Sequence record: OM386661.1
DNA length: 64,000 nt
Source: Escherichia phage vB_EcoM_ESCO45
Direction: 5' to 3' (one strand)
Shown: one piece after another, positions 7,961-30,934 of the stretch
Layout: every line of letters starts with the position of its first letter
Position numbering within the stretch: the first letter of the stretch is position 1
The notes under the pieces: generated by a model
Seen by the model: only the letters and a program-made list of their open reading frames with translations
Database searches by the model: none
Told to the model about the DNA's origin: nothing
Position numbers and translations under genes: made by a program

Positions 7961-9109
7961 ATGGCAGTAGGTGAAATTCAAATTAGTGCCTTGCCTCAAG
8001 CAGCCTTACCGATTGACCTTAGTGATATCTTCCATCTTAAACAGGGTATCGAGGATAAGAGATGTACTCTTGAGCAATTACTTGCTCCACACTCAAGCCT
8101 AAGAAATAACCCTCATGGTGTTACTAAGACACAAATTGGTTTAGATAACGTTATTAATGCTCTCCAGTTAGTTGCTGAAAATAACTTATCAGACATTGTT
8201 AGTGTAGCTGAGGCAAGAGCAAATCTACAGATTATGTCTTCAGAAGAGGTTAATAATCTTATTCAACAGCATATTGATGATAAGAGTAACCCACACAACA
8301 CCACTAAGGCACAGGTTGGGTTAAGCAATGTTCAGAACTGGGTGACATCTAACCTTTATAATGAGGATGCAGATAAGTATGCTACAGCAAGAGCAGTAAA
8401 TAACTTGTACAAGGCTGTTCAGGCTTCTTATCCAGTAGGTACTATCCATCTCTCTATGAATCCTGCAAACCCTTCTACATATTTAATTTGTGGAGGTACT
8501 TGGGAGTTAGTTTCAAGAGGAAGAGCACTTGTAGGTTATGATAGTGCTTCTAGGCCAGTTGGTTCAACGTTTGGTTCGCAGACTACTGCACTGACAGTTA
8601 ACAACATTCCTGCACATACTCACTCAGTATACGTCACTGGTGGTGGTCACACACACGGTGCAACGGCATCTATCAGTGCTTTTGACTACGGTACTAAAGG
8701 GACTACAACGTTTGACTATGGAACAAAGACTGTATCTACTTATGACTATGGTAACAGAACAACCAGTGCTGCTGGTTTAACACAAACAACATTCATTAAT
8801 CGTGGTTATGCTGATGGTGGTTGGAGAGGTTTATCAGTTGAGGGGGCAAGCTATGACCCAAGAGCTACGCTGACAACAGCTAACAACCACACTCACTCTG
8901 TAGCAATTGGTGCGCATAATCACACAGTTGAGATTGGTGCTCACAGTCATTCTGTTGCAATTGGCTCCCACAACCACTCAGCAACAGTAACAGTAACCGG
9001 AGCAGGTGAGCATTCGCACTCTGGCACAACTGGCACAACTGGTTCTGGTCAAGCATTTAGCGTTGAACAGCCATCCTTCGTATTGTATGTATGGCAGAGA
9101 ACAGCTTAA
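7961..9109 (+). CDS. tail fibre protein with C-terminal His-x-His repeat tip
   Basis: 382 aa; C-terminal region contains repeated HTHS / AHNHT / AHSHS / SHNHS motifs and FDYGTK repeats, as in metal-binding receptor tips of T4 gp37-type fibres. Confidence 0.6.
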   Translation: MAVGEIQISALPQAALPIDLSDIFHLKQGIEDKRCTLEQLLAPHSSLRNNPHGVTKTQIGLDNVINALQLVAENNLSDIVSVAEARANLQIMSSEEVNNLIQQHIDDKSNPHNTTKAQVGLSNVQNWVTSNLYNEDADKYATARAVNNLYKAVQASYPVGTIHLSMNPANPSTYLICGGTWELVSRGRALVGYDSASRPVGSTFGSQTTALTVNNIPAHTHSVYVTGGGHTHGATASISAFDYGTKGTTTFDYGTKTVSTYDYGNRTTSAAGLTQTTFINRGYADGGWRGLSVEGASYDPRATLTTANNHTHSVAIGAHNHTVEIGAHSHSVAIGSHNHSATVTVTGAGEHSHSGTTGTTGSGQAFSVEQPSFVLYVWQRTA

Positions 9110-9155: not shown

Positions 9156-11510
9156 ATGGCAGATTACAAGTTGAGTGAATTAAACTCAATTGATACAATT
9201 CGTTCAGACGACCTTCTTCATGTCAGAGTTAAAAAGAGACCTGAAATGCTGGGTGATGAAGACCGTCGAATGACCTATCAAGACTTCTTAGCATCTTTTA
9301 AACTTGAAAGATTTGTTCAGATTGCTGGTAGCACTATGACGGGTGACTTAGGGATTGTTAAGTTACTTTATGGTGGTAAGGCAGTATTTGACCCAACAGG
9401 CTCTTCTGAGATTACTATTGGGGATGTTTTAAAGACTTTTAAAATTAACGCAAATGGTCTTAAACTAACTATTGCAGATGCTTCAAGGTCGGCAACTGTT
9501 TATCATACTTTGAATAAACCAAGTCCTAATGAACTTGGGATGAGAACTAATGAAGAAAATGATGCAAGATATGCAAGGCTTGCTGTAACAAACACATTCT
9601 CTGGGACTCAAAATATTCTCTCTGACAATGAAGCCCTTATTTTTAAGAATACCACACAAGGGATGCCACTCTATATTCGTGGTCAAGATGCAGATGGCAC
9701 TAACAGATGGTATCTAGGTAATGATAATAGAAACACAGACAACCTTGTTTTAAAAAACGTTAAATCTGGTGCATACGTAGCGATTTTAGCTAACCTAATC
9801 TCTGTGAATAAATCAATTCAAATCACTGGCCAAGTTCAACCTTCGGACTTCTCTAACTTAGATGCTAGATACTTCACTCAGACAGTAGCTAATCAGAGAT
9901 TTGCACAGTTAACTGCTGATAATACTTTTAGTGGCTCTAACACTTTCAACCAACTAAATGTTTTCAAAAAAGATGGTGAAGTAATTAGGCTACAGAATGC
10001 CAATGCTGCACAACCATTGTACATTAAAGCGATTGATAGCACAGGTGCCAACAGATGGTACATTGGTAATAATAATGGAGGTGATAACGTAGCTCTAGAA
10101 AACTACAAAACTAGTGGCAAAATTACTGTAGGGACAAGTGTTGATATCAATAAAACACTAACTGTAACTGGTCAAGTACAACCTTCCGATTGGGCTAACA
10201 TTGACTCTAGATACATTCCAGCAGCTACTTTGAGCAATCTTGCTAAGCTAAGCGATGTAAACACTTTCAGGTCTGCGCAAGTTATCAACCAGAATGGCTC
10301 ACTGTTACGGCTAAAGAACACCACACAAGATAATGAGCTATACATTGCTGGTCATAATGCTGATAATGCGAGAAGATGGTACATTGGTAGCGGGGAAAGA
10401 GACAACCCAACAAGGCTTATTATCCACAACGACAGAACTTTAACTACGATTTATATGCAAGATGATTTCTTGCTGAATAAAACTGTTAGAATTACTGGTC
10501 AAGTTCAACCATCTGATTGGTCTAACTTAGATGCTAGATACTTCACTCAGGCAGCAGCTAATCAGAGATTCATGGTTGCAGGTTCTACAGGAGAAGCTAC
10601 AGAGCAGAATGCAGATGGTGTGGCATGGAACGCTAAAACAGGCTTATATAATGTAACCTCAACAAATGCTGATTACACAGCACTTGTGTTTCAAATGTAT
10701 CAGGGGGTTAACTCTTCTACTGCCTGTGCGCAATTAAAGTTCCAGTATAAGAACGGTGGGATGTGGTACAGAACATCTGTAGATAGTAAAGGCTTTGAAG
10801 CTAAGTGGTCTAAGATTTACACAGAAGCACAGAAGCCAACACCTTCAGAGCTTGGTGCATACACTAAAGCAGAAACTGACCAGAAAATTGCACAGGCAGT
10901 AAGTGACTCTACAGACCTTAACAAAATCTATCCAGTAGGTATTGTAACGTGGTTTAACAGTAATGTTGACCCTAATACAGCACTGCCTGGTCTAACTTGG
11001 ACGTATCTGAACAACGGTGTTGGTAGAACTATCAGAATTGCAGCAGCAAACGGTTCAGATGTTGCTACAACAGGTGGTTCAGATTCTGTTACGTTAGCAG
11101 TTGGAAACTTACCTTCACACACTCATAGTTTCTCTGCGACTACCTCATCGTTTGACTACGGAACAAAAAACACTAACACGACTGGTGCTCACACCCACAC
11201 TGTAAGTGGTTCTGCTGCATCTGCTGGTAACCACAACCACGCTATCTCATGGATTGGTCAGAACTCTACACACTATTCTGGTGGTGGTGGTGGTAAAATC
11301 GGTACAGGACCGGGTTACACTGATTCTGCTGGTGCTCACACCCACACAATCTCTGGTACTGCTGCATCAAATGGTAACCATGCTCACAGTGTTGGTATTG
11401 GTGCTCACACCCATACAGTAAGCGGTAACACTGGCGGTACAGGTTCTGGTTCAGCATTTAGTGTTACTAACCAGTTCTATAAGTTAATGGCTTGGGTAAG
11501 AACTGCTTAA
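9156..11510 (+). CDS. long tail fibre protein with three internal ~115-aa repeats and His-x-His tip
   Basis: 784 aa; three copies of ITGQVQPSD(W/F)(S/A)N(L/I)D(A/S)RY...; C-terminal HTHS/AHTHT/NHNHA/NHAHS repeats homologous to tip of 7961-9109 product. Confidence 0.6.
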   Translation: MADYKLSELNSIDTIRSDDLLHVRVKKRPEMLGDEDRRMTYQDFLASFKLERFVQIAGSTMTGDLGIVKLLYGGKAVFDPTGSSEITIGDVLKTFKINANGLKLTIADASRSATVYHTLNKPSPNELGMRTNEENDARYARLAVTNTFSGTQNILSDNEALIFKNTTQGMPLYIRGQDADGTNRWYLGNDNRNTDNLVLKNVKSGAYVAILANLISVNKSIQITGQVQPSDFSNLDARYFTQTVANQRFAQLTADNTFSGSNTFNQLNVFKKDGEVIRLQNANAAQPLYIKAIDSTGANRWYIGNNNGGDNVALENYKTSGKITVGTSVDINKTLTVTGQVQPSDWANIDSRYIPAATLSNLAKLSDVNTFRSAQVINQNGSLLRLKNTTQDNELYIAGHNADNARRWYIGSGERDNPTRLIIHNDRTLTTIYMQDDFLLNKTVRITGQVQPSDWSNLDARYFTQAAANQRFMVAGSTGEATEQNADGVAWNAKTGLYNVTSTNADYTALVFQMYQGVNSSTACAQLKFQYKNGGMWYRTSVDSKGFEAKWSKIYTEAQKPTPSELGAYTKAETDQKIAQAVSDSTDLNKIYPVGIVTWFNSNVDPNTALPGLTWTYLNNGVGRTIRIAAANGSDVATTGGSDSVTLAVGNLPSHTHSFSATTSSFDYGTKNTNTTGAHTHTVSGSAASAGNHNHAISWIGQNSTHYSGGGGGKIGTGPGYTDSAGAHTHTISGTAASNGNHAHSVGIGAHTHTVSGNTGGTGSGSAFSVTNQFYKLMAWVRTA

Positions 11511-12162: not shown

Positions 12163-12192
12163 AAGGCTCCTTTTTACGGGAGCCTTTTTTGT
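12163..12192. terminator. bidirectional rho-independent terminator between convergent genes
   Basis: GGCTCC-loop-GGAGCC hairpin followed by TTTTTT on + strand and an A/T-rich run on - strand. Confidence 0.65.
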
Positions 12193-12193
12193 T

Positions 12194-13093
12194 TTACTTA
12201 CCTACTGACAAAGGTGCTTCAATCTTTCCTGCATGTTGGTAGTTGTTAATGCCACCAATAAAATCACTTGCAGTAAGGTGTTTTAGGTCACTTAGTGTGT
12301 TAAGCTGTACACCAATCTCAAAAGTAGGTGCATGAAACTCTTCATTGTTCATCAGTTCATAAACCTGTTTCATATGGTTCTGATAAATCTGAGTATCTCC
12401 GAAGACGCCTATCAAATATCGTGGAGTGTATCCAGTCATCTTACAAAGAACTTCCAGAATAAAACCATAAGATGCAATGTTAAATGGAAGTCCTAAAAAG
12501 GTGTCTACAGAACGTTGATACCATTGTAAGTCAACTTCACCTTCGTTAGTGATATAAATCTGAAACAGAACATGACAAGGTGCTAAAGCCATCGAGTTGG
12601 CTGCAATATCTGCTGCATTCCAAGCATTAACAAGCATGTAACGGTCTGTGATATCACCTTTCATCTTCGTTACTAAGGTCTCTAGTTGGTCTACAACACA
12701 ACCATTATGACCTTCGAAGTTTCTCCACTGAACCCCGTAGATTCTACCACCTGCATCTTCTAGCCAGTCTTGTTCAGAAGAATAGTTAGAGCTTAACCAG
12801 CGTTTAAAATCATCTGACCAGATAGTCCAGCGTTCCCCATCATTTTCACCCCAAGTACGATAACGGAGTTCACCAAGCTTATTCTCACCGTTCAGGAACC
12901 ATAAAGCTTCTCCAATAACTTGCCGTGTAAACACCTGTTTAGATGTTAAGAGTGGGAAACCAGTACGCATATCAAAACGAAATTGTGGTGGAGCAAATGC
13001 AGAGATAACGTCTCCAGTTCGTGTAGTACGCAGTTCGCCAACGGATAAAACATGGTTCAGGATATTTTTGTAACTCAAATCAGCTTGTGACAT
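12194..13093 (-). CDS. td: thymidylate synthase (ThyA family)
   Basis: 299 aa; YGVQWR, DQL, ALAPCH (catalytic Cys), WYQRSVDTFLGLPFNIASY, GDTQIYQNH motifs in ThyA order; Asn in FNIASY indicates dUMP substrate. Confidence 0.8.
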   Translation of the reverse strand: MSQADLSYKNILNHVLSVGELRTTRTGDVISAFAPPQFRFDMRTGFPLLTSKQVFTRQVIGEALWFLNGENKLGELRYRTWGENDGERWTIWSDDFKRWLSSNYSSEQDWLEDAGGRIYGVQWRNFEGHNGCVVDQLETLVTKMKGDITDRYMLVNAWNAADIAANSMALAPCHVLFQIYITNEGEVDLQWYQRSVDTFLGLPFNIASYGFILEVLCKMTGYTPRYLIGVFGDTQIYQNHMKQVYELMNNEEFHAPTFEIGVQLNTLSDLKHLTASDFIGGINNYQHAGKIEAPLSVGK

Positions 13094-13897: not shown

Positions 13898-14137
13898 CTA
13901 TTTAACCTCAAAAACTGGCTCAAGAACCAATATAAAGTCTACACAGTCATCTTCTTCATCCAGAATACCATCAAAGTTCTTAGGAACGAAGTCGAAGAGG
14001 CTCATAACAAAACCAGCTTCGTCGCCACATGTAACTATTTTAAAAGATGCTTCATTCTCATACTGTGAAGCCATAAGCTTTTTAAGCATCTCTTTAAGGA
14101 AATCTGCATGAGCATCTTGTAAGTAGACATCAATCAT
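13898..14137 (-). CDS. hypothetical acidic protein
   Basis: 79 aa ORF in co-directional array. Confidence 0.35.
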   Translation of the reverse strand: MIDVYLQDAHADFLKEMLKKLMASQYENEASFKIVTCGDEAGFVMSLFDFVPKNFDGILDEEDDCVDFILVLEPVFEVK

Positions 14138-14150
14138 AGTTAATCACCTA

Positions 14151-14510
14151 TTATGGGAACAGGCACTTAATGTCATCGTTTTTGAAAACAAAACTTGTGT
14201 AGTTATGACCGTCAACATCCAGCCAAACAGCCTGAACATCTACACCATCAAGATTCTGGTAAAGCTCTTTGATGAAGTGGTCTTTCACAATCTGACTGCT
14301 AGTGGTTTCCAGCTTAATGTTCGAGATTGCTGAACCTACAGCCATATAACCCATGACACGTTTCTTCTCAGTATGCTTAATCTTACCATCTTTGTAAGCC
14401 ATAATAAGATTGGAGAGAATCTTTACACCATAATACTTTTCAAGGTGAGTAGGCACACCATAAAAGCCTAATGCGAAGTTTTCAGAGTGGATAATGTTTT
14501 CACGTTTCAT
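14151..14510 (-). CDS. hypothetical protein
   Basis: 119 aa ORF. Confidence 0.4.
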   Translation of the reverse strand: MKRENIIHSENFALGFYGVPTHLEKYYGVKILSNLIMAYKDGKIKHTEKKRVMGYMAVGSAISNIKLETTSSQIVKDHFIKELYQNLDGVDVQAVWLDVDGHNYTSFVFKNDDIKCLFP

Positions 14511-24083: not shown

Positions 24084-24827
24084 ATGAGTAAAATCATTGC
24101 ATTTACTGGAAAGGCACGTTCTGGAAAAGACACCTCATGTTCTATTGTGAAGAACACCTTAGAGGATGAGTATGGCTACAATGTTGAAGTAATGGCCTTT
24201 GCAGACAACCTTAAACTATCTGCATCAAAGATATTTGACTTGACTTGGAATGACCTGTACGGTGAAACTAAAGAGACTCCACAGGTATTTGACTTATCAT
24301 ATCCTGAACTGATGTTTAAAGTTACGGAAGCTATGGAGTTTACCTTCAAAGGTGAACGTTATCACACGGACTTTAAACTTGTGTCGGAATTGACAGGACG
24401 CTTAATCATGGAGCTTAAGAAGGTTGCTAAACCGACTCTATTGACACGTCTGGGGTTTAGCAAAAAGTATAAATTCTCATCAAGACAAATTCAACAGATT
24501 TGGGGCACTGAAGTTATCCGTAAAGTTATGGGTGACAAGTTCTGGGCTAAAGACCTTGAAAAACGAATGGCTCGCTTCTTTGAATCTTGTTCACTTAGAA
24601 ATCAAGAAGGTGTTGTTTTAATCAGTGATTTAAGATTTGACTCTGAAGCTGAGTGGCTGAGTAGATTTGCACACCAAACTATTGAAGTAAAAAGAGACAA
24701 TGTGGGCAAAGTTTCATCACATGTTTCAGAAAATGGCATTTCTACAAAATATGAGCGTGACATTATTCATAATAATGGTACTATTGAAGACCTTGAGAGC
24801 AAGCTAAGAGCTATCCTGAAGATTTAA
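24084..24827 (+). CDS. deoxynucleoside monophosphate kinase
   Basis: 247 aa; N-terminal IIAFTGKARSGKDT P-loop as in T4 gp1 dNMP kinase (FLSGVKRSGKDT); RBS AGGGAG. Confidence 0.65.
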   Translation: MSKIIAFTGKARSGKDTSCSIVKNTLEDEYGYNVEVMAFADNLKLSASKIFDLTWNDLYGETKETPQVFDLSYPELMFKVTEAMEFTFKGERYHTDFKLVSELTGRLIMELKKVAKPTLLTRLGFSKKYKFSSRQIQQIWGTEVIRKVMGDKFWAKDLEKRMARFFESCSLRNQEGVVLISDLRFDSEAEWLSRFAHQTIEVKRDNVGKVSSHVSENGISTKYERDIIHNNGTIEDLESKLRAILKI

Positions 24828-28405: not shown

Positions 28406-29446
28406 ATGGAGAAGTACACATTAACAAAACTTCCCGATTCAGTTACACATGTTTTTATTGACTCTGACAGTATCGCCTATAAAGGTGCTTGTGTAGTTGA
28501 GAAAGCAAAGTATAAATACGTCAATAAACTCACAGCAGAAGAATCTGAGCCATTTGATAATGCGAAAGATGCTGCAAGATGGTTAGCAGACCAGAGAATC
28601 CTTGTGGAAGAACTTGGCCTGACATTTGATGAAGATGAATGGGAAAGACAGACTTGGAAAGAAGCTAAGAGCGAAAAAGAAGCTATCATGGCTACTCAAC
28701 AGGTTCTTCAGGAATGGCTTAAGGTTGTTGGTAAAGAGAGAACTTGGGTAGGCTATTTAACAGAGAAAGGTGTGCATAAACATAAAGACGTTAAAGGTCT
28801 TGAGCACCAATATCAAGGTAACCGCAAAGATGCTGTCACACCAACACACTTAGTTGCTTGTCGTGAATATCTTTTATCCAGACCAGAGTTCAAACTAATT
28901 CTTGATGGATTTGAAGCCGACTCTATCGTTATTGCTAAAGCTGAAAAGATGGGTAAAAAGGCTGCCTTAATGAGTATTGATAAAGACCTTCGCCAAGCTG
29001 AAGGAACTTACTGCATTGATATGACCTATGAAAAGTCACCTTTGATTTTCATTGCTGATAACAACGTTGGTGAAATTTGGGATTGCCCAATAAAATCAAC
29101 ACCAAAAGCTAAGAAGACAGTTGGTGTAGGTTTTAAATTCCTTTGTTACCAAGCTGTGGCTGGTGATAACGCGGATAATTATTTTGGTTTAAAGGGCGTT
29201 GGTAAGGCTACTGTAATGAAAGCACTTGAAGGTAAAACCACCTACAAAGAGTGTCTTGATGCAATTTATGAGCTTTATGCTAAGAAAGAGTCATACACTT
29301 ATGTCTCGTGGGATGGTCAAACAATCACCAGAACACCTTTAGAGTTAATGCAGCAACACTTTTTCTTAGCTTATCAGGAAAGAAACAAGAAAGACGATTT
29401 CACTTTTAAGAAATATAATTGGGAGCCGTGTATGAATGAAGATTAA
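28406..29446 (+). CDS. 5'-3' exonuclease (FEN / T7 gp6-like)
   Basis: 346 aa; N-terminal VFIDSDSIAY acidic cluster and SIDKDLRQ...WDCPIKS similar to T7 gene 6 exonuclease layout. Confidence 0.55.
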   Translation: MEKYTLTKLPDSVTHVFIDSDSIAYKGACVVEKAKYKYVNKLTAEESEPFDNAKDAARWLADQRILVEELGLTFDEDEWERQTWKEAKSEKEAIMATQQVLQEWLKVVGKERTWVGYLTEKGVHKHKDVKGLEHQYQGNRKDAVTPTHLVACREYLLSRPEFKLILDGFEADSIVIAKAEKMGKKAALMSIDKDLRQAEGTYCIDMTYEKSPLIFIADNNVGEIWDCPIKSTPKAKKTVGVGFKFLCYQAVAGDNADNYFGLKGVGKATVMKALEGKTTYKECLDAIYELYAKKESYTYVSWDGQTITRTPLELMQQHFFLAYQERNKKDDFTFKKYNWEPCMNED

Positions 29447-29933
29447 AGGATTTGGCAATTGCCCTACCTATGGTCATTGGGTATCTTTATGTGGGGAAGT
29501 TGACCCCACTAAACATTTTGGCTTTGTCTATTTAGTACACTGTAAGAAGACTGGACAATATTATATCGGAAAGAAACAGCTTAACAGTGTGACCAAAAGA
29601 AAAGTTGCTGGGAAGACTCGGAAGAAGGTAGTCACTAAGGAAAGTGATTGGCTGACTTACGAGACTTCTTCTGAGTATATTAAAAAAGATATTGAAAGCT
29701 TTGGAAAGGAATCTTTTGACTTTTACATTATTCAGACCTACTACACAAAAGGTGGCCTAGTCTATGGTGAAGCAAACCTTCAACATAAATTCGATGTAAT
29801 GACAAAAAGGATTGACTCTAAGCTCAGACTCTTCTACAATGCCAACATTGCAGCAATTAAGTTTATTACTAAAGAAACTTATGAAGATGCTGAAAAAAGA
29901 ATCCATAAGGTAATGAAAGCAAATTGTGCTTGA
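29436..29933 (+). CDS. GIY-YIG-like nuclease domain protein
   Basis: 165 aa; FGFVYLVHCKKTGQYYIGKK resembles GIY-(10-11 aa)-YIG spacing followed by basic segment. Confidence 0.35.
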   Translation: MKIKGFGNCPTYGHWVSLCGEVDPTKHFGFVYLVHCKKTGQYYIGKKQLNSVTKRKVAGKTRKKVVTKESDWLTYETSSEYIKKDIESFGKESFDFYIIQTYYTKGGLVYGEANLQHKFDVMTKRIDSKLRLFYNANIAAIKFITKETYEDAEKRIHKVMKANCA

Positions 29934-29939
29934 CAACTA

Positions 29940-30203
29940 TTGAGAGAGATTAAAATGTTTAACAAAAGTAAGGCTGTGAGTCATGTAGCGAAAGTTGACA
30001 GCAAGATTGAAGAACTTGAGCGCATCCTTGCAAATGCTAGAGAGTCAATAATTAAAGAAGTTGAAGCTGTTGAATCTCAAATGCAGCACCTAATTCTTAA
30101 ACGTCAAGAGTTACGTGAGCATCTAGAATATATTGAAACACGAGAGCTAAAGGTTAACAAATATTTTAAGGAGTCCAAATGTTTAACTCAAGAGAATCAG
30201 TAA
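29940..30203 (+). CDS. hypothetical coiled-coil protein
   Basis: 87 aa ORF; alternative start ATG at 29955. Confidence 0.35.
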   Translation: MREIKMFNKSKAVSHVAKVDSKIEELERILANARESIIKEVEAVESQMQHLILKRQELREHLEYIETRELKVNKYFKESKCLTQENQ

Positions 30204-30934
30204 AAAACTGGAACCTTCGTTGTGGAAACACTCAAAAGCAACCTTATAGTGATGAGTATTGGGAATCTTTAAAATCTCAATCTCTGTGTATGCTTGAAGA
30301 AGCAAAAGAGCTTGTAAAAGCAATTGAAGAGAAAGACCCCATTGAGACACTGGATGCTCAGGCAGATTTGCAATATGTTCTTGACGGTTTGATTTACCTG
30401 TCACAACATGACCATAGTGGTGCTATGAAAGCTGTTTGCCATAATAACGACCTGAAGTACACAGATGACTATGAAGAGGCTTTAAAACGTCTTGCAGACA
30501 TTGAAAAGCGTACTGGTCAAGAGTGTACTATCAGAATGTCAGTAGTTGATGGTAAAGAGTGGTATGCGATTGTTCGTGCAGCCGATGGGAAGATTATGAA
30601 GCAATCAAATCTCCCTAAAGTACAGCTTGGTGAATACATTGTAGAGCTTGAAAGCCAAGAACTTTTTGTGGTAGTATCTGAGACATGCGTTATCTGCAAA
30701 GGTCTTGTAGGTAGCTTAAAGGATTTGGGTGTAGATGGTTTTGTAGAAGTTAATCCAATTACCTCTAAAGCAGATAAAGACTTCTGTAAAGAGAATGGAC
30801 TATGGATTGCAGATATTGTCTACTATGATGGTGAACAGTTCCATGTAACCTCATACCCGAAACTGAATTATGATGCTAATAACCTGAAGTGCTGGTTAAA
30901 AGGGGTTGGTTATAATGGATTCACAGAACATTAA
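30179..30934 (+). CDS. hypothetical protein (N-terminal region weakly MazG-like)
   Basis: 251 aa; RBS AAGGAG; EEAKELVKAIEEKDPIETLDAQADLQYVLDGL loosely resembles all-alpha NTP pyrophosphohydrolase motif; weak. Confidence 0.35.
   Translation: MFNSRESVKNWNLRCGNTQKQPYSDEYWESLKSQSLCMLEEAKELVKAIEEKDPIETLDAQADLQYVLDGLIYLSQHDHSGAMKAVCHNNDLKYTDDYEEALKRLADIEKRTGQECTIRMSVVDGKEWYAIVRAADGKIMKQSNLPKVQLGEYIVELESQELFVVVSETCVICKGLVGSLKDLGVDGFVEVNPITSKADKDFCKENGLWIADIVYYDGEQFHVTSYPKLNYDANNLKCWLKGVGYNGFTEH

Follow-up and report, generated by a model that had tools for sequence, protein, structure and literature searches.

Thymidylate synthases (TS) and T4 dCMP hydroxymethylase both bind the 3'-OH of the nucleotide through His207 and Tyr209 (E. 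coli ThyA numbering, used below for aligned positions), and in TS the C-terminus covers the active site (PMC5175136); Asn177 of TS specifies uracil over cytosine (PMC8670742). R127 of E. coli TS, the fourth of the arginines that bind the dUMP phosphate, is highly substitutable and experimentally dispensable; the R127A variant keeps an intermediate activity (PMC11026382). The characterised TS of Vibrio parahaemolyticus has glycine at position 127, to which its authors tie a raised Km for dUMP and which they presented in 2018 as the first natural case, unique to a Vibrio-related clade (PMC6005164). In SPO1, ViI and M6-type phages, ThyA homologues make hydroxymethyl-dUMP (PMC8989533), and hydroxymethylation yields tetrahydrofolate, leaving dihydrofolate reductase (DHFR) unneeded (PMC5175136).

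The window analysed here, the whole stretch of 64,000 nucleotides from Escherichia phage vB_EcoM_ESCO45 (OM386661.1), encodes a ThyA homologue that has neither R127 nor His207. With a probability of about 0.9, this gene, td, encodes the phage's own folate-dependent thymidylate synthase (ThyA/Td type, EC 2.1.1.45), next to frd, in a phage whose DNA contains thymine. The gene has been annotated as a thymidylate synthase since the genome papers of Felix O1 and wV8, and all tests agree with that annotation. We infer the reaction product and the kinetic effects of the substitutions from the family membership, residue pattern, predicted fold, gene context and purifying selection established below.

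The td-frd operon

The window belongs to Felixounavirus, with 95-98% identity to ESCO50, wV8 and VpaE1. Felixounavirus counterparts of the gene are annotated td and directly follow frd; the td annotation is present in wV8 and in more than 200 Felixounavirus records, with one ThyA-family gene per genome. The plus-strand frame of the td interval contains many stops, and the coding strand, left unstated in the earlier description from the letters alone, is the minus strand (Table 1). The frd gene lies directly upstream of td and abuts it translationally, with the junction TGA-T-ATG, and the two genes are co-transcribed as one operon. A stem-loop is likely to act as a bidirectional terminator closing both this operon and the convergent tail-fibre/holin operon; the wV8 annotation places a Rho-independent terminator at the matching position. 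A deoxynucleotide monophosphate (dNMP) kinase, encoded outside the td-frd operon, presumably performs the next step, from dTMP to dTDP, and supplies pathway context.

Table 1. Coordinates of the td-frd locus, of codons in td and of a pathway-related gene in the window
Feature	Position	Strand	Basis
td/thyA thymidylate synthase CDS	12194..13093 (stop codon included)	-	ORF, 299 aa + TAA; PF00303, TIGR03284, PHROG 160
Cys173-His174 codons (catalytic C146/H147; PCH in 'APCHVLF')	12572..12577	-	Both invariant in 269 homologues
Asn205 codon (N177, uracil over cytosine; in 'LPFNIASY')	12479..12481	-	Alignment; role from PMC8670742
Arg151-Tyr152 codons CGT TAC (R126-R127)	12638..12643	-	'DITDRYMLV' versus E. 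coli 'DPDSRRIIV'
Gln235 codon CAG (H207, dUMP 3'-OH ligand)	12389..12391	-	'GDTQIYQNH' versus E. coli 'GDTHLYSNH'
Gly298-Lys299 codons (two-residue extension past canonical TS C-terminus)	12197..12202	-	'...IEAPLSVGK*' versus '...IKAPVAI*'
frd dihydrofolate reductase CDS, 181 aa	13095..13640	-	PF00186, 81 bits; PHROG 316; wV8 annotation frd
G+C-rich stem-loop with T-runs on both sides/strands	12163..12186	.	Terminator scan positive on both strands
Deoxynucleotide monophosphate kinase	24084..24827	+	PF21448 DNMK, 77.9 bits; annotated in wV8 and ESCO50

The preliminary description of this DNA had taken the adjacent DHFR as an argument for ordinary thymidylate synthesis, and the abutting frd upholds it: a neighbouring DHFR gene would be the expected genomic correlate of an enzyme that produces dTMP and dihydrofolate. 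Abutting frd-td pairs also occur in Kolesnikvirus and T5-type phages. Among homologues with tyrosine at position 127 (the Tyr127 clade, described below), linkage to DHFR is frequent and not universal: the gene is adjacent in Kolesnikvirus and lies 2.3 kb upstream for clade member P0033, and no DHFR was detected within 4 kb of members P0041 and P0024. A 119-aa ORF three genes upstream of frd, whose ESCO50 counterpart is named 'nucleoside triphosphate hydrolase', was considered as a dTTP-excluding enzyme and rejected, the name being unsupported by Pfam and PHROGs.

Affiliation with thymidylate synthases

Profile searches place the td protein among thymidylate synthases: it scores 246.4 bits against PF00303 (cut-off 24.3) and 203.6 bits against the thymidylate-synthase equivalog TIGR03284 (cut-off 108.35). 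It does not score above the cut-offs of the more restricted NF00249x subfamily models, in keeping with a phage clade that has diverged. Only thymidylate synthases are found among its best sequence matches in the PDB, the strongest at E = 5.5e-49. TS is an obligate dimer; an AlphaFold2 (AF2) model of the monomer, made with no ligand, has a pLDDT of 95.9 and a pTM of 0.94; the top 50 PDB matches of this model in Foldseek are likewise all thymidylate synthases, and it superimposes on E. coli TS with a TM score of 0.94-0.95 and an rmsd of about 2.0 Å.

A profile built from the E. coli, T4 and T5-type synthases gives 222 bits, versus 58 bits for a hydroxymethylase profile. BLASTP identities are 32-44% to TS over almost the full length and 21-29% to hydroxymethylases over partial alignments, and the match to T4 gp42 is not significant (E = 0.33). 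The td genes of wV8 and the window differ by 46 synonymous and 2 nonsynonymous codons; the gene is under strong purifying selection.

Active site of the td protein

Residues were numbered against an E. coli ThyA reference identical to the PDB 1AOB sequence, and their frequencies were counted over 269 homologues. The catalytic set (Cys173, His174, Glu62, Tyr119 and Asp197) is complete, each residue being invariant or nearly so in the homologues. In the phosphate site the essential arginines R25, R151 and R194 are present, as is S195 (R21, R126, R166 and S167), and the folate site retains K52 (K48), W92 (W80) and the equivalents of L143 and F176. In E. coli numbering, the residues retained are R21, K48, E58, W80, Y94, R126, L143, C146, H147, Q165, R166, S167, D169, F176, N177, Y209 and H212, together with the C-terminal motif I-x-A-P-L-S-V.

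Four differences from canonical TS accompany this conserved core. Tyr152 replaces R127, the fourth dUMP-phosphate arginine, next to the retained Arg151; position 127 is the most variable of the four phosphate arginines, being arginine in 206 of the 269 homologues (and tyrosine in 52), versus 262-267 of 269 at the other three. Gln235 replaces His207, next to the retained Tyr237 (Y209); position 207 is histidine in 247 homologues and glutamine in 20, every glutamine case being a close relative of the query. The C-terminal carboxylate of TS helps to close the active site, and in the td protein the lid motif IEAPLSV is followed by an extra GK. Finally, the small-domain insert (residues about 93-116) is longer than in canonical TS. 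From the letters alone, the preliminary description had recognised a ThyA-family enzyme with the catalytic cysteine (PCH) and the uracil-specifying asparagine (FNIASY), and had set DRY and DTQIY of this protein against SRR and DTHLY of E. coli; each of these observations is borne out by the alignment, at Cys173 and Asn205 and against E. coli ThyA, and the C-terminal extension is a further difference absent from that description.

The same residues bear on which nucleotide is bound. Gln235 occupies a ribose-contacting position, and both ribose and base specificity vary within the superfamily (PMC5175136), so that dCMP, CMP or UMP might be considered as the substrate, by analogy with T4 gp42, the Xp12 dCMP methylase or MilA. 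Such a reading has next to no probability: Asn205 (N177) specifies uracil where cytosine-specific enzymes have aspartate, and S167 and R126 are conserved here where MilA has alanine and lysine to accept ribonucleotides (PMC5175136). On N177, S167 and R126, specificity for dCMP or ribonucleotides is rejected, and with it the dCMP hydroxymethylase mentioned in the preliminary description, which Asn at 177 excludes.

Substitutions as a lineage signature

Eighteen protein clusters share 60% identity or more with the query; Gln207 is found in all of them and Tyr127 in 17, the exception (P0016) having an aberrant local sequence and C-terminus. Tyr127 reaches relatives of about 45% identity and is accompanied in nearly all clade members by a C-terminal extension of one or two residues. 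A change from arginine to tyrosine takes two nucleotide changes, whichever arginine codon is the starting point. Given this conservation in the clusters, the reach of Tyr127 to about 45% identity, the two-nucleotide change and the 46:2 codon ratio, the Tyr127 and Gln207 substitutions are not errors or chance. Tyr127 with the longer tail defines a clade found mostly on Ounavirinae-sized contigs, and Gln207 marks its inner branch; the three features are a lineage signature and no sign of changed chemistry.

Tyr152, at the dispensable R127' position, probably has one of two effects: a higher Km for dUMP, or a bond from its hydroxyl to the phosphate. Glutamine at position 207 is able to hydrogen-bond, and Gln235 would take over from His207 in binding the dUMP 3'-OH; searches of the literature gave no mutant data on the change from His207 to Gln, and we regard the replacement as presumably harmless. 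Since His207 and Tyr209 are common to TS and T4 dCMP hydroxymethylase, they have no role in deciding between methyl and hydroxymethyl transfer.

With two substrate-contacting residues changed, td might instead be a weakened or non-catalytic ThyA relic, whose activity was largely abolished by loss of the phosphate arginine and the ribose ligand and which now serves a different purpose, such as partnering Frd or contributing to structure or regulation. The R127A variant of E. coli TS falls clearly short of wild-type activity, and laboratory growth of the related phage Bas63 does not depend on segments that carry many of its metabolic genes (PMC11482910), although the essentiality of td itself is not reported in the text of that knockout screen. 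A relic is nevertheless improbable: no catalytic residue has been lost, nor any of the remaining three phosphate arginines, selection against amino acid change is strong, the active-site signature is conserved across the clade to about 45% identity, the td-frd pairing is kept in distant relatives, and the Vibrio TS works without the matching arginine.

Comparison with dUMP hydroxymethylases

A different view of the same substitutions is that the altered C-terminus, together with Tyr127 and Gln207, opens the site and lets water, in place of hydride, capture the exocyclic methylene; the protein would then be a dUMP hydroxymethylase, or a leaky synthase with 5-hmdUMP as part of its output, and the DNA would carry 5-hydroxymethyldeoxyuridine (5hmdU) or a derivative. 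ThyA homologues of SPO1, ViI and M6-type phages perform such chemistry (PMC8989533), and the C-terminus that covers the TS active site (PMC5175136) is two residues longer in the td protein. The preliminary description had raised a dUMP hydroxymethylase as a low-probability possibility and had proposed an alignment against characterised hydroxymethylases. This alignment lends the idea something at position 127: SPO1 gp29 (annotated as a dUMP hydroxymethylase) and the ViI-like enzyme have R-Q at positions 126-127 and thus also do without the second arginine, a partial coincidence with R-Y here. At position 207 it speaks against the idea, as SPO1 gp29 and the ViI-like and PaMx11-like homologues retain His207 and Tyr209, unlike the td protein; Gln207 is therefore not the mark of a hydroxymethylase.

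The positions that separate the two groups lie elsewhere. In our own alignment of four sequences, which is not a published diagnostic, SPO1 gp29 and the ViI-like and PaMx11-like homologues have phenylalanine at W80, asparagine at H147 and asparagine at Q165 and are missing the TS C-terminal motif, whereas the td protein has W, H and Q at the same sites and keeps the lid. The profile scores given above point in the same direction, as does the passing of the TS equivalog cut-off.

Gene context agrees. DHFR, unneeded for hydroxymethylation, lies directly upstream of td; for two hydroxymethylase homologues the flanks were examined, and the annotation shows no DHFR for about 1.5 kb around either gene. 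No enzymes that remove dTTP or dTMP, dCMP deaminase, 5hmdU DNA kinase or transferases are annotated in the ESCO50 and wV8 stretches that together span the window, about 22 kb of the genome lying outside it, and the window contains no recognisable gene of this kind. When proteins encoded in the SPO1, ViI-like and PaMx11-like regions are compared with the window, the sole matches apart from the ThyA homologues are to a homing endonuclease and an exonuclease. A MazG-like ORF is located at 30179..30934. The low rating given to the hydroxymethylase was appropriate; we consider such an enzyme very improbable.

Modification state of the phage DNA

For the virion DNA of Felix O1-like phages, the searchable literature offers restriction digests only, with no base composition or LC-MS data, and it contains no enzyme assay of any Felixounavirus Td. 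The DNA of VpaE1, a felixounavirus 95.6% identical to the window, was cut by six restriction enzymes and was judged unmodified by its authors (PMC4690856), and Bas63 was described as 'remarkably sensitive' to restriction-modification systems (PMC8594841). However, SP8 DNA fully substituted with 5hmdU is refractory to only 8.3% of type II enzymes, and EcoRV and RsaI are among those that cut it (PMC7653180); because most enzymes cut such DNA, the VpaE1 digests carry less weight and are compatible with plain 5hmdU. Bas63 forms no plaques on an EcoRV strain and has 0 EcoRI sites (BASEL supplement), which makes its EcoRI result uninformative; EcoRV, for its part, cuts 5hmdU DNA too.

A further observation comes from the window itself, in which GAATTC occurs 0 times versus 19.6 expected, and GATC 0 times versus 182 expected. 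EcoRI is fully blocked by 5hmdU DNA (PMC7653180), so that a phage with 5hmdU would gain nothing by avoiding GAATTC. The complete avoidance of this site argues, indirectly, against 5hmdU, although it could be inherited.

Predicted pathway and its implications

As a thymidylate synthase, the td protein would follow established TS chemistry: Cys173 would attack C6 of dUMP, the methylene of 5,10-CH2-H4folate would be transferred to C5 under a C-terminal lid that is kept, though one or two residues longer, and hydride from the cofactor would yield dTMP and dihydrofolate. The neighbouring Frd would re-reduce the dihydrofolate, and the remaining steps of an ordinary dTTP pathway would fall to the phage dNMP kinase and ribonucleotide reductases.

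The Tyr127 clade is a second, much larger natural example of TS without the fourth phosphate-binding arginine, the first being the Vibrio clade (PMC6005164). A practical rule suggests itself: W80, H147, Q165 and the C-terminal lid separate synthases from hydroxymethylases, and positions 127 and 207 do not. Felix O1 is a classic phage of diagnostics and biocontrol, and modified DNA would have gone unnoticed in it if td made hydroxymethyl-dUMP, which is unlikely on the evidence. It is a very long shot that the Tyr127 clade, with tyrosine for R127', a lid longer by one or two residues and, in Felixounavirus, Gln207, releases some 5-hydroxymethyl-dUMP or differs in its sensitivity to inhibitors or substrate; if it did release the product, ordinary digests and sequencing would have missed a small amount of modified thymine in the DNA of Felix O1-like phages.

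Comparison with known systems

The DNA of phage T5 is canonical. The td protein resembles T4 Td (PDB 1TIS), T5-type Td and E. coli ThyA (PDB 1AOB) in fold, in catalytic and folate residues and in the lid motif, and shares the frd-td pair with the T5-type phages; it differs from canonical ThyA-type TS by Tyr for R127, Gln for H207, a C-terminus longer by two residues and the longer insert at about 93-116. T5 was considered as a Tyr127 type and rejected, since it has RR, DTH and a normal C-terminus.

T4 gp42 dCMP hydroxymethylase (PDB 1B49), of the same superfamily, has both arginines (RR) and the His and Tyr that bind the 3'-OH; unlike the query, it has Asp instead of Asn177 and is without the TS C-terminal lid. 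SPO1 gp29 and the ViI-like Kuttervirus and PaMx11-like enzymes have in common with the td protein the Cys nucleophile, Asn177, R126, R166/S167/D169 and the H207/Y209 region; unlike the query, they have F at 80, N at 147, N at 165 and other C-terminal domains without the TS lid.

The TS of Vibrio parahaemolyticus and its VAAP clade (PMC6005164) likewise works without the fourth phosphate arginine; it has Gly there rather than Tyr, is a cellular and not a phage enzyme, and has no reported Gln207 or C-terminal extension. Closest are the Ounavirinae-type synthases, from Kolesnikvirus (for example Erwinia phage FIfi106, in which frd lies directly upstream of td) and from metagenomic relatives on contigs of 54-90 kb, which belong to the same clade and share Tyr at 127 and the ending ...APLSVG; most keep His207, and Gln appears only in the inner branch, whose members share 60% identity or more with the query, and in the outlier P0122.

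Thymidylate synthase and dihydrofolate reductase genes

The ThyA-family gene of vB_EcoM_ESCO45 is very probably (about 0.9) the td gene of Felixounavirus, encoding an ordinary dTMP-forming thymidylate synthase (TS) partnered with the adjacent Frd. The ORF has the boundaries originally reported for it and reads on the minus strand; stop codons fill the opposite strand there. More than 200 Felixounavirus genomes (Felix O1-like myoviruses) are 95-98% identical to the region (ESCO50, 97.9%; VpaE1-type, 95.6%; wV8, 95.1%); each has one ThyA-family gene, the names td and frd are those of Felixounavirus records, and the Felix O1 genome paper counts both as nucleotide-metabolism genes of that phage (PMC3185647). 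Purifying selection on td is strong: compared with its wV8 counterpart, 46 codons differ synonymously and 2 nonsynonymously.

TS oxidises its folate cofactor to dihydrofolate, whereas hydroxymethylases give back tetrahydrofolate (PMC5175136); thus the synthase needs dihydrofolate reductase (DHFR) and hydroxymethylases do not. The argument for ordinary dTMP synthesis that the preliminary description drew from the neighbouring DHFR gene therefore holds, as a PF00186 gene abuts td. The frd-td pair also occurs in Kolesnikvirus and T5-type phages, and no DHFR annotation was found within ~1.5 kb of ViI-like and PaMx11-like hydroxymethylase homologues. DHFR linkage is not universal across the wider Tyr127 clade (relatives with Tyr in place of R127, E. 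coli ThyA numbering).

Features of the td region and other features of the window
Feature	Coordinates	Strand	Basis or remark
td ORF, 299 codons + stop	12194..13093	minus	ORF reading
frd (DHFR gene), 181 aa	13095..13640	minus	directly upstream of td; PF00186; TGA-T-ATG junction
Stem-loop	12163..12186		likely terminator of td/frd operon and convergent tail-fibre/holin operon
Tail-fibre protein	7961-9109	plus	ends ...WQRTA
Tail-fibre protein	9156-11510	plus	ends ...WVRTA
wV8 gp89 homologue	13898-14137	minus	PHROG 4422, 171 aa shortened to 79 aa
119-aa ORF near frd	14151-14510	minus	PHROG 4116, function unassigned
165-aa ORF	29436-29933	plus	Pfam SegE GIY-YIG homing-endonuclease match, E = 6.9e-28
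251-aa ORF	30179-30934	plus	PF01503, E = 1.2e-5; upstream of nrdA

Other products of the window are a dNMP kinase, ribonucleotide reductases of both the aerobic and the anaerobic type, and a MazG-like pyrophosphohydrolase. The last is the 251-aa ORF, with a MazG/PRA-PH-type all-alpha NTP pyrophosphohydrolase domain; it could be a source of dUMP or a means of cleaning the nucleotide pool. The ESCO50 and wV8 annotations that together cover the window show no enzyme that deaminates dCMP or removes dTMP or dTTP, and no 5hmdU kinase or transferase. When proteins encoded at the SPO1, ViI-like and PaMx11-like hydroxymethylase loci were compared with the window, the matches, ThyA homologues aside, were limited to a homing endonuclease and an exonuclease.

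Judged by their domain matches, two product names in ESCO50, the closest GenBank record, look wrong: 'nucleoside triphosphate hydrolase' for the 119-aa ORF, which has no Pfam match, and 'NAD synthetase' for the 165-aa ORF. The wV8 gp89 homologue has cleanly lost 92 codons (276 bp) in frame mid-protein, with both ends intact, and this deletion accounts for the two-piece megablast matches. The two tail-fibre proteins have similar endings and C-terminal His-x-His arrays in common (HTHS, HNHS, HSHS), reminiscent of the tips with which long tail fibres of the T4 type bind metal.

Synthase and hydroxymethylase residues

The ESCO45 protein scores 246 bits against Pfam Thymidylat_synt and passes the NCBIfam equivalog TIGR03284 for TS (203.6 bits; cut-off 108.35), and its top PDB sequence matches are TS throughout. 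An AlphaFold2 model (125 homologues as input; mean pLDDT 95.9) has TS as 50 of its 50 best Foldseek matches in PDB, and superimposes on E. coli TS with TM 0.94-0.95 and rmsd ~2.0 Å. Alignment with E. coli ThyA, which like the T4 Td and T4 gp42 references was confirmed identical to its PDB chain (1AOB, 1TIS and 1B49, respectively), bears out the motifs first noticed: the catalytic Cys of PCH (Cys173/His174 = C146/H147); the uracil-specifying Asn (Asn205 = N177, in LPFNIASY); DRY instead of SRR, with Arg151 (R126) retained and Tyr152 replacing R127; and DTQIY instead of DTHLY, with Gln235 replacing H207 and Tyr237 (Y209) retained. A third deviation, absent from the preliminary description, is an end (IEAPLSVGK) two residues longer than the canonical IKAPVAI.

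The possibility, given low probability in the preliminary description, that the enzyme is a dUMP or dCMP hydroxymethylase was examined by aligning the protein and these references with SPO1 gp29, taken as a dUMP hydroxymethylase by annotation, and homologues from ViI-like Kuttervirus, PaMx11-like Pseudomonas phage and Agathobaculum phage. In the SPO1, ViI-like and PaMx11-like enzymes W80 is Phe, H147 is Asn (PCN versus PCH), Q165 is Asn and the TS C-terminal lid motif is missing; the ESCO45 protein is in the synthase state at all four places, and also retains R21, K48, E58, Y94, R126, L143, R166, S167, D169, F176, N177 and Y209. In BLASTP it shares 32-44% identity with the synthases of T5-type phages, T4 and E. 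coli over nearly full length but 21-29% with hydroxymethylases in partial alignments, and it scores 222 bits with a small synthase profile versus 58 bits with a hydroxymethylase profile. These comparisons speak against a dUMP hydroxymethylase, and a dCMP enzyme is ruled out by Asn at 177. H207 and Y209 contact the nucleotide 3'-OH in TS and T4 dCMP hydroxymethylase alike (PMC5175136), and because hydroxymethylases retain both, the Gln at 207 is no hydroxymethylase mark; the sole partial coincidence is the Gln at 127 of the SPO1 and ViI-like enzymes. Hydroxymethylation is very unlikely; what probability it keeps comes in part from the alteration of the C-terminal lid, the element that shields the reactive intermediate.

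Restriction sites and base modification

VpaE1 DNA was cut by six of six restriction enzymes, from which its authors inferred no modified nucleotides (PMC4690856); EcoRV and SpeI have been used to digest DNA of UAB_Phi87; and in vivo, restriction-modification systems find Bas63 'remarkably sensitive' (PMC8594841). Such results rule out bulky hypermodification, yet they would be compatible with plain 5hmdU, since only 8.3% of 204 enzymes were resisted by the fully 5hmdU-substituted SP8 DNA, which EcoRV and RsaI cut (PMC7653180). Neither GAATTC (19.6 ± 4.2 expected) nor GATC (182 ± 13 expected) occurs in the window; of the 64 six-base palindromes, 25 in all are missing, CTGCAG (Markov expectation 22.7), ATGCAT (15.6) and CAGCTG (13.2) among them; the same avoidance is reported for Felix O1-like phages (PMC4690856). 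Because 5hmdU completely blocks EcoRI (PMC7653180), nothing would drive a phage whose DNA carries 5hmdU to eliminate GAATTC; the absence of this site argues indirectly against 5hmdU and against a hydroxymethylase, although the avoidance could be inherited. Such extreme avoidance fits DNA protected by losing sites and not by modifying bases.

The substitutions as lineage signatures

Among 269 homologues from two database searches, Arg is found at 21 in 262, at 126 in 266 and at 166 in 267, but at 127 in only 206 (Tyr in 52), so that 127 varies most among the four arginines that bind the phosphate; position 207 is His in 247 and Gln in 20. The Tyr127 sequences are the protein's own neighbourhood, reaching down to ~45% identity, and those whose contigs were checked are mostly on 54-90 kb contigs and include Erwinia Kolesnikvirus phages that bear names; P0041 comes from a contig of 176 kb. 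Nearly all end in ...APLSVG or in that sequence plus one residue, 1-2 residues beyond the canonical end. Gln207 is confined to an inner branch of 60% identity or more and to P0122, an outlier. This distribution indicates that the deviations are lineage signatures.

Tyr127 and the ...APLSVG end nearly always occur together (homologue clusters P0013-P0041 and P0121-P0124; locus L007:2501-3433). At the clade edge, P0126 and P0162 have RR with a VG tail and P0056 has RY without the extension; as these have one feature alone, the link may stem from common descent and not from any structural need. The close relative P0016 (Shigella phage vB_SflM_004 TS), with Q-N at 126/127 and the end ...FEVS instead of ...APLSVGK, does not look like a real variant; a local frameshift or an error of sequencing seems to have entered its record.

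Tyr152 would most likely weaken one of the four phosphate contacts, or re-make it via its hydroxyl; Gln235 most likely stands in for His as 3'-OH ligand, Gln being presumably able to replace His in this hydrogen bond; and the longer tail would move its terminal carboxylate one or two residues further on. A relic that is weakened or has lost catalysis is very unlikely, and altered substrate specificity extremely so. Tolerance at 127 is supported by the intermediate activity that E. coli R127A retains (PMC11026382), by 1990 work as cited in PMC4304848, by active L. casei R179 mutants as cited in PMC6005164 and by the natural Gly of a Vibrio TS described below. The literature search found no report on the effect of His207 to Gln, and it turned up neither an assay of a Felixounavirus Td nor a nucleoside analysis of virion DNA.

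The td product as a dTMP-forming synthase is an ordinary finding, annotated already; the only small addition is that the Tyr127 clade supplies a second natural example, and a larger one, of a TS without the fourth phosphate arginine. The characterised Vibrio parahaemolyticus TS has a natural Gly at 127, to which its authors tie a raised Km for dUMP (PMC6005164).
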